Origin: a virus
Lineage: Duplodnaviria; Heunggongvirae; Uroviricota; Caudoviricetes
Reading direction: 5' to 3' (one strand)
DNA length: 10,347 bases
Virus record (IMG/VR): IMGVR_UViG_2698536570_000008
Below are positions 1,924 through 10,347 of this stretch, in pieces; the first letter of the stretch is position 1; each line of letters starts with the position of its first letter. Under the pieces are notes generated by a model that worked only from the letters and a program-made list of their open reading frames with translations, was not told the origin of the DNA and made no database searches. The translations under genes were made by a program, and so were the position numbers.

Positions 1924-2812
1924 CGTGTTCACCCTCACGAACTTTCAGGTAGGTATTATCGTTAAGCAGGAAATCAAATCCCTTTTTGTGCCAGACGGTT
2001 CCGCGCTGATGGTTTGGGCGCTCTTCGAACATCCATCGGCAATTTTCGCCTACGTAGCTCAAATAATTTCTCCAGTCCTGCATCGTGAACCCATGCCCGT
2101 CAAGCTGGCGGGTTATCACTCCGGCTTTGCGCCAGAACGTTCGGATCTGGTTTTTACGCTTGTCATTCAGTGCGCGGATTTTTGGCGCTTCAGGAAGGAT
2201 TTCGTGGTAAGCATCGACAACATCCTGACAGCTAACGGAAGGTTTTTTCTTGTCAGACTTTTTGTCTGCTGTGGCACTCTCTAATACGTCAGTATTAGAG
2301 ATAATATTATTATATTCTTTATCTGTGGTAATTTGCTGGTAATCTGCTGGTACAGTATTGCTTACAGGCATTGGTATTTCTGGCTTTGAGGTGGTAATTT
2401 GCTGGTAATCTGCTGGTACAAAATTTGACTGATAATCGTCATATTTCTCTACCGAGAAAACTGAGAATTTACCGTGTGAAACCCAGTCAATCATGCCGAG
2501 TTTTTTGAACTTTCTAAGCAGGTACTGAACGCGATCTGGTTTGAGTCCTGTTTCAAACGCCAGAGAGTTTCTACCGCCAAGTAGCTTCCCTCTGCCTACC
2601 AGAATTTCTCCTGCGTCAGTCATTACATACTCAGGCGTATGCTTTGCTTTGAGGATTAAGTGAACCCACAGATGCGCAGCTTCTGCGTCCTTGTAAAACG
2701 GCACATCCATAATTTTACGGTGCAGCAAGGCATACCCCTTACCGCTGCTTTGATGCGGTTGTTGTAGCCTTCTGGCCTCTCTGGCTTCGGCTAGATTAGA
2801 TATGTTACTCAT
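1913..2812 (-). CDS. O: Replication initiation protein, lambda O / P22 gene 18-like (replisome organiser)
   Basis: ORF track 1913..2812 (-), 299 aa; strong SD AAGGAGAAAGG before the ATG at 2812; sits between cII and the helicase as in lambdoid phages; contains the internal iteron array that encodes the duplicated peptide [10 protein letters not shown]. Confidence 0.75.
2322..2420. repeat. Putative replication origin: iteron array inside the O-like gene with an adjacent AT-rich stretch (2281-2320)
   Basis: Exact 30-bp direct repeat gtggtaatttgctggtaatctgctggtaca at 2325-2354 and 2391-2420, each made of about 11-bp subunits (ctgtggtaat / ttgctggtaat / ctgctggtaca); immediately followed in gene orientation by the AT-rich stretch ctaatacgtcagtattagagataatattattatattcttt. 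Confidence 0.6.
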
Positions 2813-2951
2813 GACCTTTCTCCTTCTGCATCAGCTTCACTTTTTCCAACTCAGCCCGGAATCGACCAGGCTGCTTGAAGCTGGACAGGAAGCGATCACG
2901 TAGTATGTGTTTGTGAATTTTGTCCTGGTAAGGACTGAGTTGTTTTGTCAT
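2805..2951 (-). CDS. Hypothetical small basic protein (48 aa, [21 protein letters not shown]...)
   Basis: Internal ATG (2951..2949) of ORF track 2805..3044 with AGGAG SD upstream (complement of about 2957-2961); overlaps the O-like start by 8 nt. The longer track ORF would overlap the cII 3' end, so the shorter start is preferred. Confidence 0.35.
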
Positions 2952-2985
2952 AATGACTCCTGTGGATTGATCCAGTCTTTCTACA

Positions 2986-3267
2986 TCAGGCCTCGAAGAA
3001 TTCGCCGTTCTTCGGGGCTTTTTCTTTTGTAAGGTAATTGGCAAGCCGATTAGTCAATTCAGCCATTTCATCGTCTTCGATTCCGTATTCCAGAACAGCC
3101 AGCATCATGCTTACCTGCGAGAAGAAACCATTCTTCCATCTGCTTACCTGATATTCAGGAACCCCCATTGCTCGAGCGAATGTCTTCTGCCCCATCAGTG
3201 CCAGTTTGTTCAGCAAGGCTGACTCGATGCGAGCCGCTTTCTTGCTTTTAGTTGCAATAGTACCCAT
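2986..3267 (-). CDS. cII: Transcriptional activator CII (lambda cII family)
   Basis: 93 aa; [11 protein letters not shown]...QVSRWK...[17 protein letters not shown] closely parallels lambda CII ([11 protein letters not shown]...QISRWK...MLLAVLEWGVVDDDMARL, from memory); AAGGAAA SD; position between cro and O. Confidence 0.85.
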
Positions 3268-3275
3268 AGATAATT
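3242..3275 (+). promoter_or_regulatory. Candidate pRE (CII-activated promoter) reading antisense through cro toward cI
   Basis: TTGC-N6-TTGC (3242-3245 and 3252-3255, plus strand) lying inside the first codons of cII as in lambda pRE, with a -10-like GATAAT at 3270-3275. Confidence 0.4.
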
Positions 3276-3343
3276 TCCTTAATGATTAGATAGAGTTGGC
3301 TTCGCAAAGAAACGCAAAACCATAGAGATTTGTTTCTGGTAAT

Positions 3344-3375
3344 GCCCTTTTTCAGGGCGGGGATGTGTAAGAGCG
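3344..3375 (-). promoter_or_regulatory. nutR: nutR (N utilisation site: boxA + boxB) in the cro-cII interval
   Basis: On the minus strand: boxA CGCTCTTA (complement of 3368-3375) followed by boxB GCCCTGAAAAAGGGC (complement of 3344-3358), matching the lambda nutR boxB as I recall it. Confidence 0.8.
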
Positions 3376-3383
3376 GGAATGTC

Positions 3384-3599
3384 TTAAGCGGCTTTGTGTT
3401 CCGGCGGGAACAAGCCATCTAGCGTTGTCTTGCTCCCCAATTTATTCAGCGCCTTTACCAGGCGACGGCACGACTCTAAATCTGGAGTCCGGATACCTGA
3501 CTCGTAGTTAGCTAAGCGGGACTGGTTCCAGCCACACGCGCCTGCTAACGCAGATTGAGTGATGCCAAGCTTTTTCCGTTCGTTGGCAATGTTGTTCAT
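3384..3599 (-). CDS. cro: Cro-like HTH repressor (first gene of the pR operon)
   Basis: 71 aa; HTH signature LGITQSALAGACGWNQSRLANYESG; divergent from the cI-like gene across the operator region; AAGGAAA SD. Confidence 0.75.
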   Translation of the reverse strand: MNNIANERKKLGITQSALAGACGWNQSRLANYESGIRTPDLESCRRLVKALNKLGSKTTLDGLFPPEHKAA

Positions 3600-3703: not shown

Positions 3704-4345
3704 ATGCGCATGAACAGAACAGAAACTATCGCCGCGCGTATCAAGCGATTACGGGAAGATAAAGGGCTTTCACAGAAGGCTCTGGCGGAGCTTTGCGGCT
3801 GGGCTTCACAATCTCGGATCGGCAACTATGAATCAGGAACCAGAAGCGTTAGTGTTGATGACGCAGAGGTAATAGCTAAAGCTTTGGGCGTCGCTCCGGC
3901 AGAACTGCTTTTTGGCGACAACTATCAGGGACAATACAAGCCAGGGGAAAAGTTTCCGTTGATTAGCTGGGTTAGCGCAGGTGCATGGAATGAGGCCGTA
4001 GAGCCGTACAACCCTCAGGCAGTGGATGAGTGGTATGAATCAGATTGTCACGTTGTCGGTGACGCCTTCTGGCTCAGGGTTCAGGGCGACTCAATGACAG
4101 CTCCTACCGGCCTTAGCGTTCCTGAGGGTATGCTGGTTCTGTTCGACACTGGAAAGGAAGCCGTTAATGGAAGCCTGGTAGTTGCGAAGCTGACAGATGC
4201 TAATGAAGCCACGTTCAAGAAGCTAATCATTGATGGCGGTAACAAATACCTGAAAGGGCTTAACCCTGCCTATCCGTTGATCCCAATCGACGGCAACTGC
4301 AAGATAATCGGCGTAGCAGTGCAGATGATGATGAAATTCTCCTGA
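3704..4345 (+). CDS. cI: CI-type prophage repressor (N-terminal HTH + C-terminal LexA/S24-like autocleavage domain)
   Basis: 213 aa; HTH LSQKALAELCGWASQSRIGNYESG; C-terminal PLISWVSAG...VQGDSM...ATFKKL...NGNCKIIGV with the catalytic Ser/Lys context shared with P22 C2 and LexA; start could be ATG 3704 or 3710 (no SD, possibly leaderless). Confidence 0.9.
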   Translation: MRMNRTETIAARIKRLREDKGLSQKALAELCGWASQSRIGNYESGTRSVSVDDAEVIAKALGVAPAELLFGDNYQGQYKPGEKFPLISWVSAGAWNEAVEPYNPQAVDEWYESDCHVVGDAFWLRVQGDSMTAPTGLSVPEGMLVLFDTGKEAVNGSLVVAKLTDANEATFKKLIIDGGNKYLKGLNPAYPLIPIDGNCKIIGVAVQMMMKFS

Positions 4346-4368: not shown

Positions 4369-4392
4369 AAACCCGCTTCGGCGGGTTTTTTG
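4369..4392 (+). terminator. Rho-independent terminator after the repressor gene
   Basis: cccgc (4372-4376) / ttcg loop / gcggg (4381-4385) followed by TTTTTT. Confidence 0.7.
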
Positions 4393-4432: not shown

Positions 4433-4495
4433 ACACGTGTTGTGATAAAAACAATCACATTTCGTGTTGACAGCACGAACACAATTTGTGATTAT
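4433..4495 (+). promoter_or_regulatory. OL operator cluster with pL promoter
   Basis: Sites ACACGTGTTGTGAT (4433-4446), ATCACATTTCGTGT (4454-4467, inverted) and ACACAATTTGTGAT (4479-4492), same consensus as OR. pL: -35 TTGACA (4467-4472), 17-bp spacer, -10 GATTAT (4490-4495). Confidence 0.65.
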
Positions 4496-4534: not shown

Positions 4535-4565
4535 CGCTCTTAAAAATTAAGCCCTGAAGAAGGGC
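4535..4565 (+). promoter_or_regulatory. nutL: nutL (boxA + boxB)
   Basis: boxA CGCTCTTA at 4535-4542 and boxB GCCCTGAAGAAGGGC at 4551-4565, about 35-65 nt downstream of the predicted pL start; matches lambda nutL as I recall it. Confidence 0.85.
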
Positions 4566-4833: not shown

Positions 4834-5166
4834 ATGGATGCACAAACACGCCGCCGCGAACGTCGCGCAGAGAAACAGGCTCAATGGAAAGCAGCAAATC
4901 CCCTGTTGGTTGGGGTAAGCGCAAAGCCAGTTAACCGCCCTATTCTCTCGCTGAATCGCAAACCGAAATCACGAGTAGAAAGCGCACTGAATCCGATAGA
5001 CCTTACGGTGCTGGCTGAATACCACGAACAGATTGAAAGCAACCTGCAACGTATTGAGCGCAAGAATCAGCGCACATGGTACAGCAAGCCACGCAGTGAA
5101 ATGGGTGTGACCTGCTCAGGCCGCCAGAAGCAACGCGGAAAATCAATTCCAGCTTATTACGATTGA
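4834..5166 (+). CDS. N: Antitermination protein N (lambda N-like)
   Basis: 110 aa beginning MDAQTRRRERRAEKQAQWKAANPLLVGVSAKPVNRPILSLNRKPKSRVESA (arginine-rich boxB-binding motif), near-identical to lambda N as recalled; AGGAG SD; downstream of pL/nutL. Confidence 0.9.
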   Translation: MDAQTRRRERRAEKQAQWKAANPLLVGVSAKPVNRPILSLNRKPKSRVESALNPIDLTVLAEYHEQIESNLQRIERKNQRTWYSKPRSEMGVTCSGRQKQRGKSIPAYYD

Positions 5167-5174
5167 GGTGAGCC

Positions 5175-5312
5175 ATGCTCAAGAAAGTCAAACGCCGACT
5201 TTACAAAGAAGGTAGATATTCATGCCAATTGCCAAAATGCGACACAACAAAATGGAGTGTCGATGATTGGTGTAACTGGATAGATAGATACGGAACTTGG
5301 TGGGATAAATAA
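5175..5312 (+). CDS. Hypothetical small Cys-containing protein (45 aa, MLKKVKRRLYKEGRYSCQLPKCDTTKWSVDDWCNWIDRYGTWWDK)
   Basis: ATG at 5175 with GAGGTGA SD 5 nt upstream, 8 nt after the N stop; stop TAA 5310-5312. Under 60 aa so absent from the ORF track. No family recognised. Confidence 0.3.
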   Translation: MLKKVKRRLYKEGRYSCQLPKCDTTKWSVDDWCNWIDRYGTWWDK

Positions 5313-5369
5313 CAGGTAACTTAAGCGTATTTACTTTCGCAGCAAACCACTTATTTGAGAGGAATTAAT

Positions 5370-5993
5370 ATGTCATCAATCCGCTTAACTACGAGAATGA
5401 AAGAGGAAATCGCTCGTAACGCTTTAATTAAGTCTGGGGTTTTCACTGAACTTGAAGAAGTAACAAAGTTAAATAACCAGCTTGCACTTGACGCCAGAGT
5501 TATTGCGTTTGGCGGTAAAAAGAAAACTGAGGAAGTGGATCAGTTATCATCCAAGTTGGTAGCTCTAGGTGAAGAACTTGAAAAGATGGGATGTTCATTT
5601 TACTTATACGATGTTCGTTCTACTTCAATTTATCTGACTGTATCTGGCAGAAGGGTTGGATGGTATTCATATGGGAAAGACGGCAACGGCGAAGATATAT
5701 TGCTCCCTACTCCGACCAAAGATAAATGCATGTTTAGCGCAGAACACGAAATAACAAAAAGGTTTGATGAAATCTGCGCATTGCAACAAAAACTTGAAGC
5801 CAAGAAAAAGGATATCGTATCAAATGTATGGGCTGCTTTGAACTCAGTCACAACAGTTAAGCGACTTATTGAAGTTTGGCCTGAAAGCAAAGAATTGCTA
5901 CCAAAAGAAGCAGATAAAGCAAGTACAGCACTTCCTGCTTTACGGGTAGAAGATTTGAATAAGATGATTGGACTTCCTTCCGAGGCCGCATAG
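5370..5993 (+). CDS. Hypothetical protein, 207 aa, first gene of a low-GC accessory island (unknown function)
   Basis: ORF track 5355..5993; preferred start ATG 5370 with GAGAGGA SD; codon region about 38% GC versus about 50%+ for flanking phage genes; not hydrophobic, no motif recognised. Confidence 0.7.
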   Translation: MSSIRLTTRMKEEIARNALIKSGVFTELEEVTKLNNQLALDARVIAFGGKKKTEEVDQLSSKLVALGEELEKMGCSFYLYDVRSTSIYLTVSGRRVGWYSYGKDGNGEDILLPTPTKDKCMFSAEHEITKRFDEICALQQKLEAKKKDIVSNVWAALNSVTTVKRLIEVWPESKELLPKEADKASTALPALRVEDLNKMIGLPSEAA

Positions 5994-6008
5994 TCGGCCT
6001 TTATTTTG
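5982..6008 (+). terminator. Possible intrinsic terminator or attenuator overlapping the stop codon of the 207-aa gene
   Basis: aggccg (5983-5988) / 6-nt loop / cggcct (5995-6000) followed by TTATTTT. Confidence 0.45.
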
Positions 6009-6030
6009 GGCATAAACAACAGAGGTGAAT

Positions 6031-6318
6031 ATGAAAGAGTTTAAGGGTACGCCTGGTAAATGGAAGTACACGGTTAGAAACGTCAACGAGATGATGACTA
6101 CGTTCCATGGTGTGACGATTGGTGACACATACATTGAAGCAGCAACAAGAAATGAAAGGGAGGATGCGCTACTGATAGCGGCAGCACCTGACCTTCTCGA
6201 AGCACTTCAGTTATTACTTAAGCAATCCAAAAATAGAACAACGACAACATATCCAGAATGGTATGAAGCTGTTAATAAAGGTCTTGCAGCAATCAGAAAA
6301 GCTCTTGGGGATAAGTAA
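6031..6318 (+). CDS. Hypothetical protein (95 aa, MKEFKGTPGKWKYTV...LIAAAPDLLEALQ...), low-GC island
   Basis: ORF track 6025..6318; ATG 6031 with AGAGG SD; stop TAA 6316-6318 overlaps the next start (TAATG). Confidence 0.6.
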   Translation: MKEFKGTPGKWKYTVRNVNEMMTTFHGVTIGDTYIEAATRNEREDALLIAAAPDLLEALQLLLKQSKNRTTTTYPEWYEAVNKGLAAIRKALGDK

Positions 6319-6506
6319 TGAAAGTAAAAATAACTGCTTCTAATACCAGTTTTGTTAGTGTTGGTGATATTACAGAAGTAATAACAAACCATGATGGAAC
6401 ACAAGTTATGTGGTCTGATTTTTGTAAAAGATATGAGCGAGTCACTTGGTGTAAACTCGTATGGGGCGTCGAATACGAAGAATTACCTGAAATGCATGAC
6501 GAATAA
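6318..6506 (+). CDS. Hypothetical protein (62 aa), translationally coupled to the upstream gene, low-GC island
   Basis: ORF track 6318..6506; ATG overlaps the upstream stop by 1 nt; low GC. Confidence 0.55.
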   Translation: MKVKITASNTSFVSVGDITEVITNHDGTQVMWSDFCKRYERVTWCKLVWGVEYEELPEMHDE

Positions 6507-6601: not shown

Positions 6602-6627
6602 GCCCTCCAGTGTGAGGGCTTTTTTAT
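6602..6627 (+). terminator. Rho-independent terminator (tL-like) between the low-GC island and the cIII-like gene
   Basis: gccctc (6602-6607) / cagtgt loop / gagggc (6614-6619) followed by TTTTTTAT. Confidence 0.7.
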
Positions 6628-6691
6628 ATGCATACCAATAACGCTTCACTCGAGGCGTTTTCGTTATGCAATCAAATATAAGGAGTTACCC

Positions 6692-6826
6692 ATGATGCAC
6701 TTTCAGCTCGCGGGTAGCGGCGTCATGTCCGCTTTCTACCCGCACGAATCTGAATTATCACGCCGAGTTAAACAATTAATCAGAGCAGCAAAGAAACAAC
6801 TGGAGGCGTTATGCGCAATGAAATAG
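6692..6826 (+). CDS. cIII: cIII-like small protein (44 aa, MMHFQLAGSGVMSAFYPHESELSRRVKQLIRAAKKQLEALCAMK)
   Basis: Strong SD TAAGGAG 6 nt before ATG 6692; small size and position immediately upstream of the Kil-like gene as in lambda/P22 pL operons; the amphipathic central helix is reminiscent of CIII. Family assignment is from gene order plus weak similarity only. Confidence 0.45.
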   Translation: MMHFQLAGSGVMSAFYPHESELSRRVKQLIRAAKKQLEALCAMK

Positions 6827-6963
6827 CCATTAATCACCAGATGCTTCGTGCTGCACAGAACAAAGCAGTAATAGCCAGATTTATTGGTGATTCCAAAATG
6901 TGGCTTGAAGCAAATAAAGCGATGAAATCAGCTATCAACCTTCCGTGGTATCGCAGGAAATGA
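6811..6963 (+). CDS. kil: Kil-like host division inhibitor (50 aa, MRNEIAINHQMLRAAQNKAVIARFIGDSKMWLEANKAMKSAINLPWYRRK)
   Basis: ATG 6811 with GGAGG SD; overlaps the cIII-like 3' end; motif IA-FIGD-KM--EA resembles lambda Kil (IATFIGDEKMFREA, from memory). Under 60 aa so not in the ORF track. Confidence 0.5.
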   Translation: MRNEIAINHQMLRAAQNKAVIARFIGDSKMWLEANKAMKSAINLPWYRRK

Positions 6964-7130
6964 GTTTTACAGATAACTGGTCAGACGAAGAATTCATTCG
7001 TCAGATGAAAGAATTAATCGGTAACGAAGGAGATATTCATGTCACTTGCAACCACAGTGAAGGAGAGCAAGTTACAGAGACGCATGTACACGCAGCAGGC
7101 GTTAATGTATCGCCAGAAGGGAGATCGTGA
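6960..7130 (+). CDS. Hypothetical small acidic protein (56 aa), in the position of P22 arf
   Basis: ORF track 6945..7130; ATG 6960 overlaps the Kil-like stop (ATGA); lies between kil-like and erf. Function not supported by motifs. Confidence 0.35.
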   Translation: MSFTDNWSDEEFIRQMKELIGNEGDIHVTCNHSEGEQVTETHVHAAGVNVSPEGRS

Positions 7131-7219: not shown

Positions 7220-7825
7220 ATGAGCAAAGAATTTTACGCAAGACTGGCAGCTATTCAGGAGAATCTGAACGCGCCAAAGAATCAGTACAACTCATTCGGC
7301 AAATATAAATACAGAAGCTGCGAAGACATTCTTGAAGGCGTTAAGCCGTTACTGAATGGCCTGTTTTTATCAATCAGCGATGAAGTTGTGTTGATTGGTG
7401 ATCGGTATTACGTGAAAGCAACGGCAACTATTACTGATGGCGAAAACAGTCATACAGCAACCGCTCTTGCACGAGAGGAAGAAAGCAAGAAAGGAATGGA
7501 TTCTGCACAAGTTACGGGAGCTACAAGCTCTTATGCACGCAAGTATTGCCTCAATGGTTTGTTCGGTATTGATGATGCGAAAGATGCAGATACAGACGAG
7601 CATAAACATCAGCAGAACGCAGCAGCAAAGCAATCAAAACCATCACCTACACCTGAACAGGTTCTAAAATCATTCACTGACGCAGCAATGCAGAAAAACA
7701 CCGTGGAAGAGCTTAAACAGGCGTTCGCCAAAGCGTGGAAGATGCTCGAAGGCACACCGGAGCAGCGCAAAGCGCAGGACGTTTACAACATCAGACGAGA
7801 CGAATTAGAAGGAGCGGCTGCTTAA
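7220..7825 (+). CDS. erf: Erf-family single-strand annealing recombination protein (P22 Erf-like)
   Basis: MSKEFYARLAAIQENLNAPKNQYNSFGKYKYRSCEDILEGVKPLL...GDRYYVKATATITDGENSH...GATSSYARKYCLNGLFGIDD strongly recalls P22 Erf; ORF track 7190..7825 with internal ATG 7220 as the likely start. Confidence 0.9.
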   Translation: MSKEFYARLAAIQENLNAPKNQYNSFGKYKYRSCEDILEGVKPLLNGLFLSISDEVVLIGDRYYVKATATITDGENSHTATALAREEESKKGMDSAQVTGATSSYARKYCLNGLFGIDDAKDADTDEHKHQQNAAAKQSKPSPTPEQVLKSFTDAAMQKNTVEELKQAFAKAWKMLEGTPEQRKAQDVYNIRRDELEGAAA

Positions 7826-8208
7826 TGGCACATTCGATTACTGTAAGACTAAACAAGCCCGCAAGAGAGTTTCAGGCCGGGGAAAATATCGGATTCAACA
7901 TCCGTGCTGGCGTTCAGTATTACGATCGCCAGACAAAAAAGAAAGAATGGACAAACTACAGCGCCGTTGTATTTGCCAAGCCGGGAGCGCAAGCGGATTA
8001 CTACCGTAGCGTTCTGGTTGAAGGAGGCATTGTGGAAATTACCGGAGAAAACATCAGGGTTGATGTTTATCAGGGGCAAAATGGTCAATCAATCACTCTT
8101 GAATTACTGAATGCAAAGATTGGATTTGCAACTTCAGGAAACAGCCAACAGCAGCAAAGTAGCAATCATCAAAATCATCCTGAATACGACGATTCAATTC
8201 CCTTCTAA
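7825..8208 (+). CDS. ssb: Phage single-stranded DNA-binding protein (SSB-like OB fold with acidic C-terminal tail)
   Basis: 127 aa from ATG 7825 (TAATG overlap with erf stop); C-terminus ...PEYDDSIPF mirrors the bacterial SSB tail DDDIPF; Gln/Ser-rich linker before the tail; the longer ORF-track N-terminus is spurious. Confidence 0.7.
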   Translation: MAHSITVRLNKPAREFQAGENIGFNIRAGVQYYDRQTKKKEWTNYSAVVFAKPGAQADYYRSVLVEGGIVEITGENIRVDVYQGQNGQSITLELLNAKIGFATSGNSQQQQSSNHQNHPEYDDSIPF

Positions 8209-8231: not shown

Positions 8232-8525
8232 ATGCCAGCGCCTCTGTATGGTGCGGATGACGCGCGCCGCTGTTCCGGCAATTCCGTATCGGAGGTGCTG
8301 GATAAATTCAGAAAAAACTACGACCTGATAATGTCGCTACCGCAGGAAACGAAAGAGGAAAAGGAATTTCGCCATTGTATATGGCTTGCAGAGAAAGAAG
8401 AACGCGAGCGAATTTACCAGACATCAATCCGACCATTCCGCAAAGCCACATATACCCACTTCCCTGAAATTGACCCGCGCCTGCGTAATTACCGCTCACG
8501 CTATGGCGCTATCAGTAATGACTGA
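8232..8525 (+). CDS. abc2: Putative Abc2-like anti-RecBCD protein (97 aa)
   Basis: Size and position downstream of erf match P22 abc2; the sequence [10 protein letters not shown]...[43 protein letters not shown] resembles my recollection of Abc2. Not verified by search. Confidence 0.5.
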
Positions 8526-8703: not shown

Positions 8704-8972
8704 GTAATTCAGCACGACTACAGCTTGGTTTTTCACCGCTATCAAAAACTATCATGCTGGCAAAAATGCGCGATGTTGAAGGTGGACGTATGCGCGTTGG
8801 CAATGATCCAGGTCGTGATGTTACCAATGAGGCTGCTCAATTGGTGTGGCGACTGGTCATGGCTGAAGGTGGTGAGATCGCGTGGGAGCTGGATGATGGT
8901 TCTCGCATGGTGTTGAAGGCAGAAAAGCAGGAGGCAACCAGTGAGCAACATCGACAAACAGGCGCTGCGTGA
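8700..8972 (+). CDS. Hypothetical protein (about 90 aa; GTG start)
   Basis: ORF track 8679..8972; GTG 8700 preceded by a perfect AGGAGG SD (8688-8693) and overlapping the upstream stop (GTGA); ATG 8679 is an alternative start. Confidence 0.4.
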
Positions 8973-9330
8973 AATCGCAGCGGCAGCAGTTGGCGCACAT
9001 GAGCGCCTTAGTGTTATGCCGCCTGATGACATTTTCGATATCTCACTGGCAGAAGGAACTCAGCTTGATGCAGATATCACTGCCTTGAACGCGCTGAACT
9101 CCGCAGCAAACCCCGCCACCGTGCTGGCGCTGCTGGCATCGCTGGAAGCCGCAGAGAAGCGGATTGCCGAGCTGGAGGCGCGGCAGGTTGTACTGCCGCG
9201 TACGCAAGATGTTCACCCGTTAGGGCCACAGTCGGCGAAAATTTTTTGTGATTTTCACAGAAATATTATCAACAGATGCGCCGATGAGATTCGCAAAGTT
9301 GGCGTTAATGTCAGCATAAAGGGGGAGTAG
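8941..9330 (+). CDS. Hypothetical protein (129 aa; GTG start), Ala/Leu-rich central region
   Basis: ORF track 8941..9330; start context is the same 17-bp AGGAGGCAACCAGTGAG as at 8688-8704; overlaps the upstream gene by 32 nt. Confidence 0.5.
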   Translation: MSNIDKQALREIAAAAVGAHERLSVMPPDDIFDISLAEGTQLDADITALNALNSAANPATVLALLASLEAAEKRIAELEARQVVLPRTQDVHPLGPQSAKIFCDFHRNIINRCADEIRKVGVNVSIKGE

Positions 9331-9334
9331 GGAT

Positions 9335-9519
9335 ATGGCTGAATTTACGAAAGAGCGCATTATCGAAGAGATGAAAGCATCGACGCAGAACACCAGTGGT
9401 ATGTTTGAAATCAGCGAGGACACCATATGCGCGTTGATGTCCATGCTCTCCTACCCGCCAGCGCCGGTATCTGTGCCCGCTGCGATGGAAATTGATGATG
9501 ACTTTGACAGCGCGTTTGA
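9335..9519 (+). CDS. Hypothetical protein, 5' portion only (runs into the assembly gap)
   Basis: ATG 9335 five nt after the upstream stop, with a purine-rich upstream stretch; reading frame continues into the N run at 9520. Confidence 0.4.
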
Positions 9520-9569
9520 NNNNNNNNNNNNNNNNNNNNNNNNNNNNNNNNNNNNNNNNNNNNNNNNNN
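9520..9569. other. Assembly gap (50 N)
   Basis: Run of 50 unresolved bases; true length of missing sequence is unknown. Confidence 0.95.
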
Positions 9570-9857
9570 CTGGAGTGGGCTGCACAATTGGCAGAAGCCA
9601 ATCATCCGCAAACAGGTGACTGGTTGTACGACGACCCAATCGATCTTGCCAGGGCGATTCGCAAAGGTCCTGATATGCCTACTGTTCAGGCTGGCAACTC
9701 TCCGGTAACTCCGGATGGTTGGGTTATGGTGCCGAAGGAGCCAACTCAGGCCATGATTAAAGCGTGGCTATCAGAGATTGCTAACTTTCGCGGTCATGCT
9801 GCTGGTTACAGGGCTGCTATAGAAGCAGCACCACAACTGGAGGTTAACCGTGGCTAA
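9570..9857 (+). CDS. Hypothetical protein, 3' portion after the gap (possibly the same gene as 9335..9519)
   Basis: Open frame from the gap edge to TAA 9855-9857 (...GWVMVPKEPTQAMIKAWLSEIANFRGHAAGYRAAIEAAPQLEVNRG); frame relation across the gap cannot be determined. Confidence 0.4.
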   Translation: MEWAAQLAEANHPQTGDWLYDDPIDLARAIRKGPDMPTVQAGNSPVTPDGWVMVPKEPTQAMIKAWLSEIANFRGHAAGYRAAIEAAPQLEVNRG

Positions 9858-10155: not shown

Positions 10156-10347
10156 ATGACCGATACCAGCCTGATTCCTGAGAAAGAAGTGATGAACAAG
10201 CTCGGTGTTTCATCACGACAGACAATCTGGAACTATACCAAACGGCACGGATTTCCGAAGCCAGTCAGAACCCACCCCAAATCATACCTTCGTGAAGCTG
10301 TTGAAGGGTGGATTCTTAACGGTGGCGTTAACCAGAAATGCTCCTGA
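10156..10347 (+). CDS. xis: AlpA/Xis-family DNA-binding protein (putative excisionase)
   Basis: 63 aa; LIPEKEVMNKLGVSSRQTIWNYTKRHGFPKPV...YLREAVEGWI fits the AlpA/excisionase winged-helix pattern; located at the distal end of the pL operon where xis-int lie in lambdoid phages; stop TGA coincides with the window end. Confidence 0.65.
   Translation: MTDTSLIPEKEVMNKLGVSSRQTIWNYTKRHGFPKPVRTHPKSYLREAVEGWILNGGVNQKCS

Follow-up and report, generated by a model that had tools for sequence, protein, structure and literature searches.

The gene and its setting

What kind of protein is encoded by the largest gene in the variable part of this phage early region, and what may it do there? The 207-aa open reading frame had been described as the main cargo gene of an island. 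We considered it within the window, by which we mean the whole stretch of DNA analysed (10,347 nucleotides). The gene itself is defined by two features:

5357-5363, + strand: Shine-Dalgarno sequence GAGAGGA, 6 nt upstream of the ATG (direct reading of the sequence)
5370-5993, + strand: Nmad5-family gene, 207 aa (PF18757; phrog_1965; 100% identity to the gene of E. coli AW1.7)

The reading frame begins with the ATG at 5370, ends with the TAG at 5991-5993 and specifies a product with a predicted mass of 23 kDa. An alternative in-frame TTG at 5355 would lengthen the protein by 5 residues, but we prefer the ATG because GAGAGGA is placed six bases before it; the canonical ribosome-binding site and start codon noted in the original prediction are thus retained. 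Between N (4834-5166) and Erf (7220-7825) no other ORF is as long, in agreement with the rank given to it within the island. A 19-residue hydropathy scan reveals no transmembrane-like stretch (maximum Kyte-Doolittle mean 0.93; GRAVY -0.30; pI 6.65), and the protein models as a fully soluble helical/beta structure, in agreement with the earlier view that it is not a membrane protein of the SieB type. The gene is intact in 79 of the 82 close homologues, and the median pairwise dN/dS among 65 distinct alleles is 0.34. The ORF is therefore a real, intact gene under purifying selection, and its product is a cytoplasmic member of the Nmad5 family.

The window represents the early region of a lambdoid E. 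coli prophage, with a pL operon resembling those of P22 and HK97, and its whole length is matched with 100% identity by a prophage of E. coli AW1.7. Its remaining features are:

minus strand: DnaB-like helicase, O-like initiator, cII and cro
3704-4345, + strand: cI (HTH and S24)
4369-4388: bidirectional terminator-like hairpin (terminator scan)
4467-4495, + strand: pL-like sigma-70 promoter, TTGACA-17-GATTAT, TG-extended (promoter scan)
4535-4565, + strand: nutL, with boxA CGCTCTTA at 4535-4542 and boxB GCCCTGAAGAAGGGC at 4551-4565 (exact pattern matches)
4834-5166, + strand: N antiterminator gene (Pfam N36, E=1.6e-26; phrog_271)
5175-5312, + strand: 45-aa DUF5484 gene (Pfam PF17583, E=2.6e-12)
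6031-6318 and 6318-6506, + strand: two small ORFs (phrog_1273 and phrog_10407)
6692-6826, + strand: cIII
6811-6963, + strand: Kil
6945-7130, + strand: 61-aa ORF (phrog_2123)
7220-7825, + strand: Erf
7825-8208, + strand: SSB-like protein
8232-8525, + strand: Abc2 (PF11043, E=5.7e-64)
8941-9330, + strand: Ea22-like protein
10156-10347, + strand: excisionase-like ORF (phrog_66 match)

The operon thus runs from pL through nutL, N, the DUF5484 gene, Nmad5 and the two small ORFs to cIII and Kil, and continues with the phrog_2123 ORF, Erf, the SSB-like gene and Abc2. In phage HK542 the position matching the pL-like promoter is annotated as "similar to lambda PL", and boxA and boxB are identical to those of lambda nutL. 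An Rfam scan of the window gave no matches.

Nmad5 occupies a variable, low-GC stretch between N and cIII: the G+C content is 0.37-0.41 across 5.2-6.6 kb, compared to 0.52-0.55 over N. In lambda and P22 this slot contains ral and other accessory genes. A comparison of 82 close loci reveals that the flanks of Nmad5 are mosaic. Neither the 95-aa ORF nor the DUF5484 gene is often found alongside; the latter, which is rarely inserted between Nmad5 and N, accompanies Nmad5 in just 2 of these loci. Its presence distinguishes the window from the loci of the HK542 type; in HK542 the Nmad5 gene (HK542_033) also belongs to the pL operon and directly follows N. Among the 29 close loci that share the N type of the window, Nmad5 starts 21 nt past the N match in 26. 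Nmad5 is therefore a stand-alone gene, which belongs to no fixed multi-gene system and has no constant partner.

Transcription from pL

The hairpin and T-tract that had been reported over the end of the gene are indeed present:

5982-6010, + strand: hairpin and T-tract overlapping the stop codon (terminator scan, fold calculation)

According to the terminator scan, this element consists of a 7-bp stem with 5 G-C pairs, a 6-nt loop and a T-rich tail. Its folding energy of -13.2 kcal/mol is unremarkable in comparison with shuffled sequences (z = -1.03). Nearly all of the 82 close relatives that were compared also have the hairpin; among them no compensatory covariation was found, and the variants disrupt base pairs instead. 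A function as a terminator is plausible. No other terminator-like site precedes this one downstream of pL; a simple consensus scan detected none on the + strand between 4388 and 5982. Because nothing resembling a terminator separates pL from this hairpin, Nmad5 is probably transcribed together with N, immediately on infection or induction and before antitermination is needed, an estimate of timing that depends on a hairpin of ordinary stability and on the simple consensus scan. In its position within the N-cIII slot of the pL operon and in its presumed early expression, Nmad5 resembles Ral of lambda and P22. There is, on the other hand, no sequence relationship between the two, and the Pfam scan gives only Nmad5 above threshold.

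Family membership and distribution

The protein had been considered unassignable to any family, which turned out not to be the case. Residues 4-203 span positions 1-206 of the 206 in the Pfam profile PF18757 (E=2e-70; score 237.5 bits, cut-off 27), whose full name is Nucleotide modification associated domain 5, and the protein also matches phrog_1965 (E=1.8e-81), a family of unknown function. Judging from these full-length profile matches, its identity as a member of the Nmad5 family is nearly certain. A search of NCBIfam with the 207-aa protein gave no match. The gene, the family and the name are already in public databases, hence the assignment has little novelty: the identical gene of AW1.7 is labelled by RefSeq/PGAP as "Nmad5 family putative nucleotide modification protein".

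Orthologues with approximately 95% identity are encoded by HK542, HK244, mEp235 and many Stx1a- and Stx2a-converting phages. Those of HK542 and mEp235 are full length with 95.7% amino acid identity, those of the Stx1a phages have 94.2%, and that of HK244 has 98.1% at the DNA level. The records of HK542, HK244, mEp235 and the Stx1a phages call the product a "hypothetical protein", and in the literature on HK542 and mEp235 we found nothing on the Nmad5 gene. Of 5,426 complete E. coli genomes, 3,297 share at least some portion of the window and 211 have the Nmad5 gene. At a greater distance, a search with a profile among 1.84 billion cluster representatives (clusters at 50% identity) retrieved 2,450 relatives at E<=0.001, and nearly all of the best 150 of these are 190-235 aa long. 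Among the matches listed from a collection of 5.8 billion proteins there are no fusions to other domains, PF18757 being the sole domain. A scan of genome contigs yielded four loci only.

Members of the family are found in strictly lytic phages as well, including N4-like phages, Yuavirus, Dhillonvirus and Enc34-like phages. The notion of island cargo therefore holds in so far as the gene lies in a variable, low-GC accessory slot, but not in the sense of a gene peculiar to this prophage, since the family comprises 2,450 clusters and extends to lytic phages. The same distribution bears on the idea, implicit in the original prediction, that Nmad5 is a prophage defence or superinfection-exclusion gene that benefits the lysogen. 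A low-GC, variable prophage region beside the immunity region is a common site of such genes, in accord with this idea. We nonetheless consider it very improbable: in the lysogen, transcription from pL would be shut off by the repressor, as inferred from the biology of lambda; the gene has no constant partner; strictly lytic phages carry it as well; and the comparison with defence-system profiles, which had been proposed as a check, gave no match in PADLOC-DB at E<=1 for Nmad5 or for the ORFs at 5175-5312, 6031-6318 and 6318-6506.

Among the phage families without an assigned function, that of Nmad5 ranks with the larger ones, and it is linked to escape from the Tmn defence. The word "modification" in its name reportedly goes back to the founding paper of Iyer et al. 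(2013), in which the name is said to have been chosen for genomic association with nucleotide and DNA modification genes. We argue that the label "nucleotide modification protein" is a case of guilt by association and that a docking or adaptor factor is the likelier identity.

Genomic neighbourhoods

At 70% identity, 172 loci were grouped into 24 Nmad5 clusters, whose neighbours were annotated together with those in several public records and contigs. The second-largest cluster has the order DUF2800 PD-(D/E)XK nuclease, Enc34-type SSB, Nmad5 and family-A polymerase (PolA), which recurs in Acinetobacter phage Scuro and in a Providencia prophage. In Pseudomonas phage Amjad_SA, Nmad5 is placed between a DUF3799 PD-(D/E)XK protein and AAA_24, and a further locus has Nmad5, AAA_24 and DUF669 in this order. 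The N4-like phages of the G7C type have PolA, ThyX, Nmad5, a PD-(D/E)XK exonuclease, primase, Sak4 and SSB; locus L176 has UvrD, PolA, Nmad5, an RNase_T-like exonuclease, PurZ and genes of the MazZ/DatZ type; and locus L177 has ThyX, Nmad5, an Rv2179c-like exonuclease and PolA. In Yuavirus SN1, Nmad5 is found between aGPT-Pplase1 and a thymidylate-synthase-like hydroxymethylase. Early-left operons of temperate phages include L174, in which Nmad5 is two genes from an MT-A70 methyltransferase and accompanied by an SSB, and another one, in which it is upstream of a protein with a gp5.9-like domain, while in SPN3UB it is in the nin region, near DinI. In Dhillonvirus and one metagenomic contig, by exception, a lone Nmad5 gene is surrounded by head and terminase genes. 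The common denominator of these neighbourhoods is a replication, recombination and nucleotide-metabolism module, not base modification as such.

One candidate was rejected: gp41 of N4 (202 aa), encoded at the syntenic place ahead of the exonuclease, has no Pfam match and scores -0.8 bits with the HMM of the family, hence we regard it as unrelated.

The neighbourhoods also permit an evaluation of the interpretation that the family name itself suggests, namely that Nmad5 is itself an enzyme that modifies nucleotides or DNA, or a subunit that targets or regulates a modifying enzyme and so helps it to act on phage DNA. The SN1 arrangement, the proximity to ThyX in the N4-like phages and L177, the PurZ and MazZ/DatZ-type genes of L176, and the methyltransferase of L174 all speak in its favour. 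The Nmad5 proteins of Yuavirus phages M6 and SN1 belong to the same family as ours (residues 121-207 of the window protein can be aligned), and their context agrees with the family name. However, the thymidine-hypermodification cluster of Yuavirus contains a kinase, aGPT-Pplase, rSAM and PLP proteins and the hydroxymethylase, none of which was found in the window. More generally, the ORFs scanned across the 10.3-kb window include no thymidylate synthase, kinase, aGPT-Pplase or methyltransferase, and no modification genes were found in the early region of HK542. The 5-NedU hypermodification of M6, the single such pathway to have been dissected, has been rebuilt in vitro from gp51-gp54, in a paper that is silent on Nmad5; the pathway was thus reconstituted without this protein. 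Modification clusters are, moreover, themselves embedded in replication modules, and the protein has neither conserved catalytic residues nor a relative in fold or sequence among known enzymes. On balance, we regard a direct part in modification as quite unlikely.

Predicted structure and conserved residues

Two AlphaFold2 models of the protein have the same layout (pLDDT 86.2 and 88.3; pTM 0.70 and 0.76), with pLDDT of 85-98 over the folded blocks within residues 1-180. Three parts of the protein are of interest:

5391-5843, + strand: folded body, with helices in residues 8-72, a beta-hairpin region in 86-122 and a long helix in 127-158 (AlphaFold2)
5847-5903, + strand: the most conserved block, SVTTVK(K/R)Lx(E)xWPExxELLP, residues 160-178 (150 representatives)
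5931-5978, + strand: C-terminal peptide LPAxxVxDLNxxIGLP, residues 188-203, predicted to be unstructured

The original prediction of a coiled-coil-like N-terminus is borne out as to its helical nature, the region appearing in the models as three confident helices instead, and the Gly/Tyr-rich central segment is present and models as the beta-hairpin region. Short helices are located on the C-terminal side. The body is predicted with confidence to be a helical bundle with a beta-hairpin tip. A Foldseek search of the PDB gave no convincing relative (best E = 0.59), the BFVD structure search retrieved only other uncharacterised Nmad5 proteins, and sequence and profile searches of the PDB found nothing meaningful.

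In an alignment of 150 representatives, conservation of at least 80% is found for R5, L6, I14, A18, K21, G23, R43, G48, G49 and G93 in the first half of the protein, for V153, T162, L166, W170, P171, E172, E175, L176 and P178 in and near the WPE block, and for L188, P189, L196, N197, G201, L202 and P203 at the C-terminus. The window protein has all of the family motifs, i.e. RL(T)..I..NA..K.G, the GG pair, WPExxELLP and LNxxIGLP. The only polar residues at this level of conservation are R5, K21, R43, T162, E172, E175 and N197, and the alignment contains no conserved cluster of His, Cys, Asp and Ser residues of the kind seen in enzymes. All four segments of the protein are close to neutral in charge. 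This pattern of conservation, combined with the neutral charge, argues against an enzyme, a DNA mimic and a strongly basic DNA-binding protein alike. Nmad5 is probably not an enzyme, a reading that derives from the lack of conserved residues of catalytic type, the neutral charge, the single-domain architecture and the reconstitution of the M6 pathway. An unusual enzyme could, on the other hand, operate despite the absence of conserved catalytic residues.

The C-terminal peptide combines two properties. It is strongly conserved among the 150 representatives (L196 99%, N197 100%, G201 95%), with the motif present in 138 of them at a median of 6 residues from the end, and yet its pLDDT is 46-57 in both models, even with an alignment of 54 sequences. 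A peptide that is conserved and at the same time predicted to be unstructured in a monomer would be typical of a motif by which a protein docks on a partner.

Motifs that bind the beta-clamp near a protein terminus have the form QL[SD]LF or QLxLxL. The tail consensus N-x-[LM]-I-G-L-P has a loose resemblance to the hydrophobic-Gly-Leu end of such motifs, with N in place of Q and without a hydrophobic residue at position 2.

Tmn escape in Dhillonvirus

Functional data on the family are confined to relatives from Dhillonvirus. Phages of this group that escape the Tmn defence carry K216E or K296E in Nmad5, and reverting the escape change restores sensitivity to Tmn (PMC11846954). Deletion of nmad5 leaves the phage viable without allowing escape, and the gene could not be cloned, being apparently toxic (PMC11846954). 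The Tmn-escape change thus behaves like an altered interaction specificity, not like a loss of function.

The Dhillonvirus proteins (PhiSMS22, PhiSMA8) and the window protein have in common an N-terminal RLT and a C-terminal block KKLIxxWPE...LNxxxGxP. They differ in that the Dhillonvirus protein examined has 254 aa with a large central insertion, compared to 207 aa here, and the identity of 31% is confined to the C-terminal 100 residues; in addition, the Dhillonvirus gene stands alone on the opposite strand, within the head module, and the phage is lytic. In a pairwise alignment, residue 216 of the 254-aa homologue corresponds to R165 of the window protein, provided that the numbering of PhiSMA8 is that of the aligned homologue. 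Position 165, a conserved basic position (K in 51% and R in 23% of sequences), is part of TVK(K/R)L just ahead of WPE. If the alignment is correct, the escape site points to functional activity of the conserved surface at the C-terminus.

These observations speak for the proposal that Nmad5 is a counter-defence or host-takeover factor in a Ral-like slot, which would neutralise, or be monitored by, a component of host immunity or DNA surveillance. The abolition of Tmn defence by the K-to-E change, but not by deletion, resembles a gain of function, and the gene appears to be toxic (PMC11846954). The accessory slot next to N, upstream of the first terminator-like site, the sporadic distribution among lambdoid prophages and the conserved unstructured C-terminal peptide would also fit. 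Against this proposal, the gene is kept in the replication modules of several lytic groups, in a manner more reminiscent of housekeeping than of fast-evolving anti-defence genes; the protein is not acidic and does not mimic DNA; and the prophage already has Abc2 against RecBCD. We consider the proposal doubtful, although far from negligible, and note that it overlaps with the adaptor reading developed below should the protein dock on a partner from the host.

A specific role against RecBCD was given less weight, as Abc2 is encoded in the same operon; a Pfam scan of the Nmad5 protein detected no RecBCD-inhibitor family (Gam, Abc2 or T7 gp5.9). The "nucleotide modification associated domain" in a validated defence system of the DefensePredictor paper is Nmad2, not Nmad5, and hence irrelevant here.

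Dispensability

The concern that the ORF might be a pseudogene in related phages applies in part, namely to Stx2a-converting phages with a gene split by an insertion of the IS3 family. In Stx2_716 the split occurs after approximately nt 5476 (window numbering) and is caused by a 1,311-bp element that encodes the OrfA and OrfB proteins of this family. The other Stx2a records listed have the gene in two pieces (123 places in 77 records), which correspond to residues 1-37 and 34-207. As the phages concerned probably belong to a single clone, the gene is likely to have been split only once. Because the insertion interrupts the gene there, Nmad5 is dispensable in the Stx2a lineage. Together with the presence in 211 of 5,426 genomes and the viable deletion mutant of Dhillonvirus, the split copies indicate dispensability more generally: Nmad5 is an optional accessory of lambdoid phages and is sporadic among their prophages.

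Proposed function

Taking these results together, we propose that Nmad5 is a dispensable, non-catalytic adaptor or modulator that acts through the WPE block and the C-terminal peptide, and we would assign to this reading a probability of roughly 0.45. According to this scenario, the protein would be made early from pL, together with N. It would then contact a partner protein via the WPExxELLP surface and the C-terminal peptide, both the mechanism and the partner being inferred from conservation and models, while family membership, operon anatomy and distribution are directly shown. The target may be the DNA replication or recombination of the phage, or a conserved host protein of DNA metabolism. 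The assignment to DNA metabolism follows from the recurrent neighbours, i.e. exonucleases, SSB and annealing proteins, family-A polymerases, thymidylate synthases and base-modification genes. Such neighbourhoods are themselves a criterion of guilt by association, and some Nmad5 genes are found among head and terminase genes. Host-takeover genes, too, may be located within replication modules, as exemplified by genes 5.5-5.9 of T7.

It is tempting to go further and to consider the Nmad5 proteins as widespread immediate-early factors, whose peptide and WPE block would dock on a conserved hub protein of proteobacterial DNA metabolism or immunity. We think this extended version unlikely. If true, it would account for the toxicity on cloning, for the presence in replication modules of unrelated phages, and for the defeat of Tmn by a single charge reversal at the equivalent of R165.

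Genetically, the lambdoid copy in HK542 or mEp235 would be well suited to finding both the partner and the function of Nmad5, being small and dispensable.

Integrity and possible replacement of the Nmad5 gene

The Nmad5 gene is not intact in all relatives of the prophage. In the Stx2a-converting phage Stx2_716 it is interrupted by an insertion sequence of the IS3 family, 1,311 bp in length, at a point that corresponds to ~5475/5476 in window coordinates, and a two-piece Nmad5 of this kind is also found in the other records of Stx2a-converting phages that are listed. The element resembles IS629/IS1203. In phage N4, the position before the exonuclease gene, which Nmad5 holds in the G7C-type N4-like phages, is taken by gp41, a protein with no detectable similarity to Nmad5; gp41 may represent a non-homologous replacement.

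LC616058.1 (Stx2_716), 2149-3459: IS3-family insertion sequence, with OrfA (108 aa) and OrfB (296 aa)
NC_008720 (phage N4), 11739-12347: gp41, 202 aa

Members of the enterobacterial Nmad5 subfamily terminate in ...P(S/T)E(A)AA-COOH (last residues at window 5985-5990), an ending reminiscent of the ssrA-like C-terminal degrons, which are recognized by ClpXP. It is not kept family-wide, the terminal AA being present in 21 of the 150 family representatives.

Neighboring genes of the early region

The following features of the window flank Nmad5:

4369-4388: GC-rich hairpin with a perfect 8-bp stem and T-runs on both strands, directly 3' of cI
5175-5312: DUF5484 gene (45 aa, phrog_1871), between N and Nmad5
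6602-6619 and 6640-6659: two terminator-like hairpins, just upstream of cIII
6811-6963: Kil, overlapping the end of cIII
7220-7825: Erf
7825-8208: SSB-like gene, whose product has the C-terminus DDSIPF
8232-8525: full-length Abc2, a P22-type anti-RecBCD gene (PF11043, E=5.7e-64)

The hairpin behind cI appears to be a terminator that acts in both directions and sets cI apart from pL. The DUF5484 gene, of unknown function, is missing in nearly all close relatives, where Nmad5 directly follows N; it has the appearance of a small insertion of recent date. What is given as a 79-aa ORF at window 6587 is in fact cIII; its Pfam match covers residues 37-73, and the start of the gene is probably at window 6692.

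Exactly 50 consecutive N at window 9520-9569, an assembly gap or masked stretch, lie inside the ORFs around 9335-9857, and the ORF calls there are therefore not reliable. Upstream of this region, the succession of Erf, the SSB-like gene and Abc2 identifies the recombination module of the prophage as P22-like Erf/Abc2, rather than Bet/Exo/Gam.
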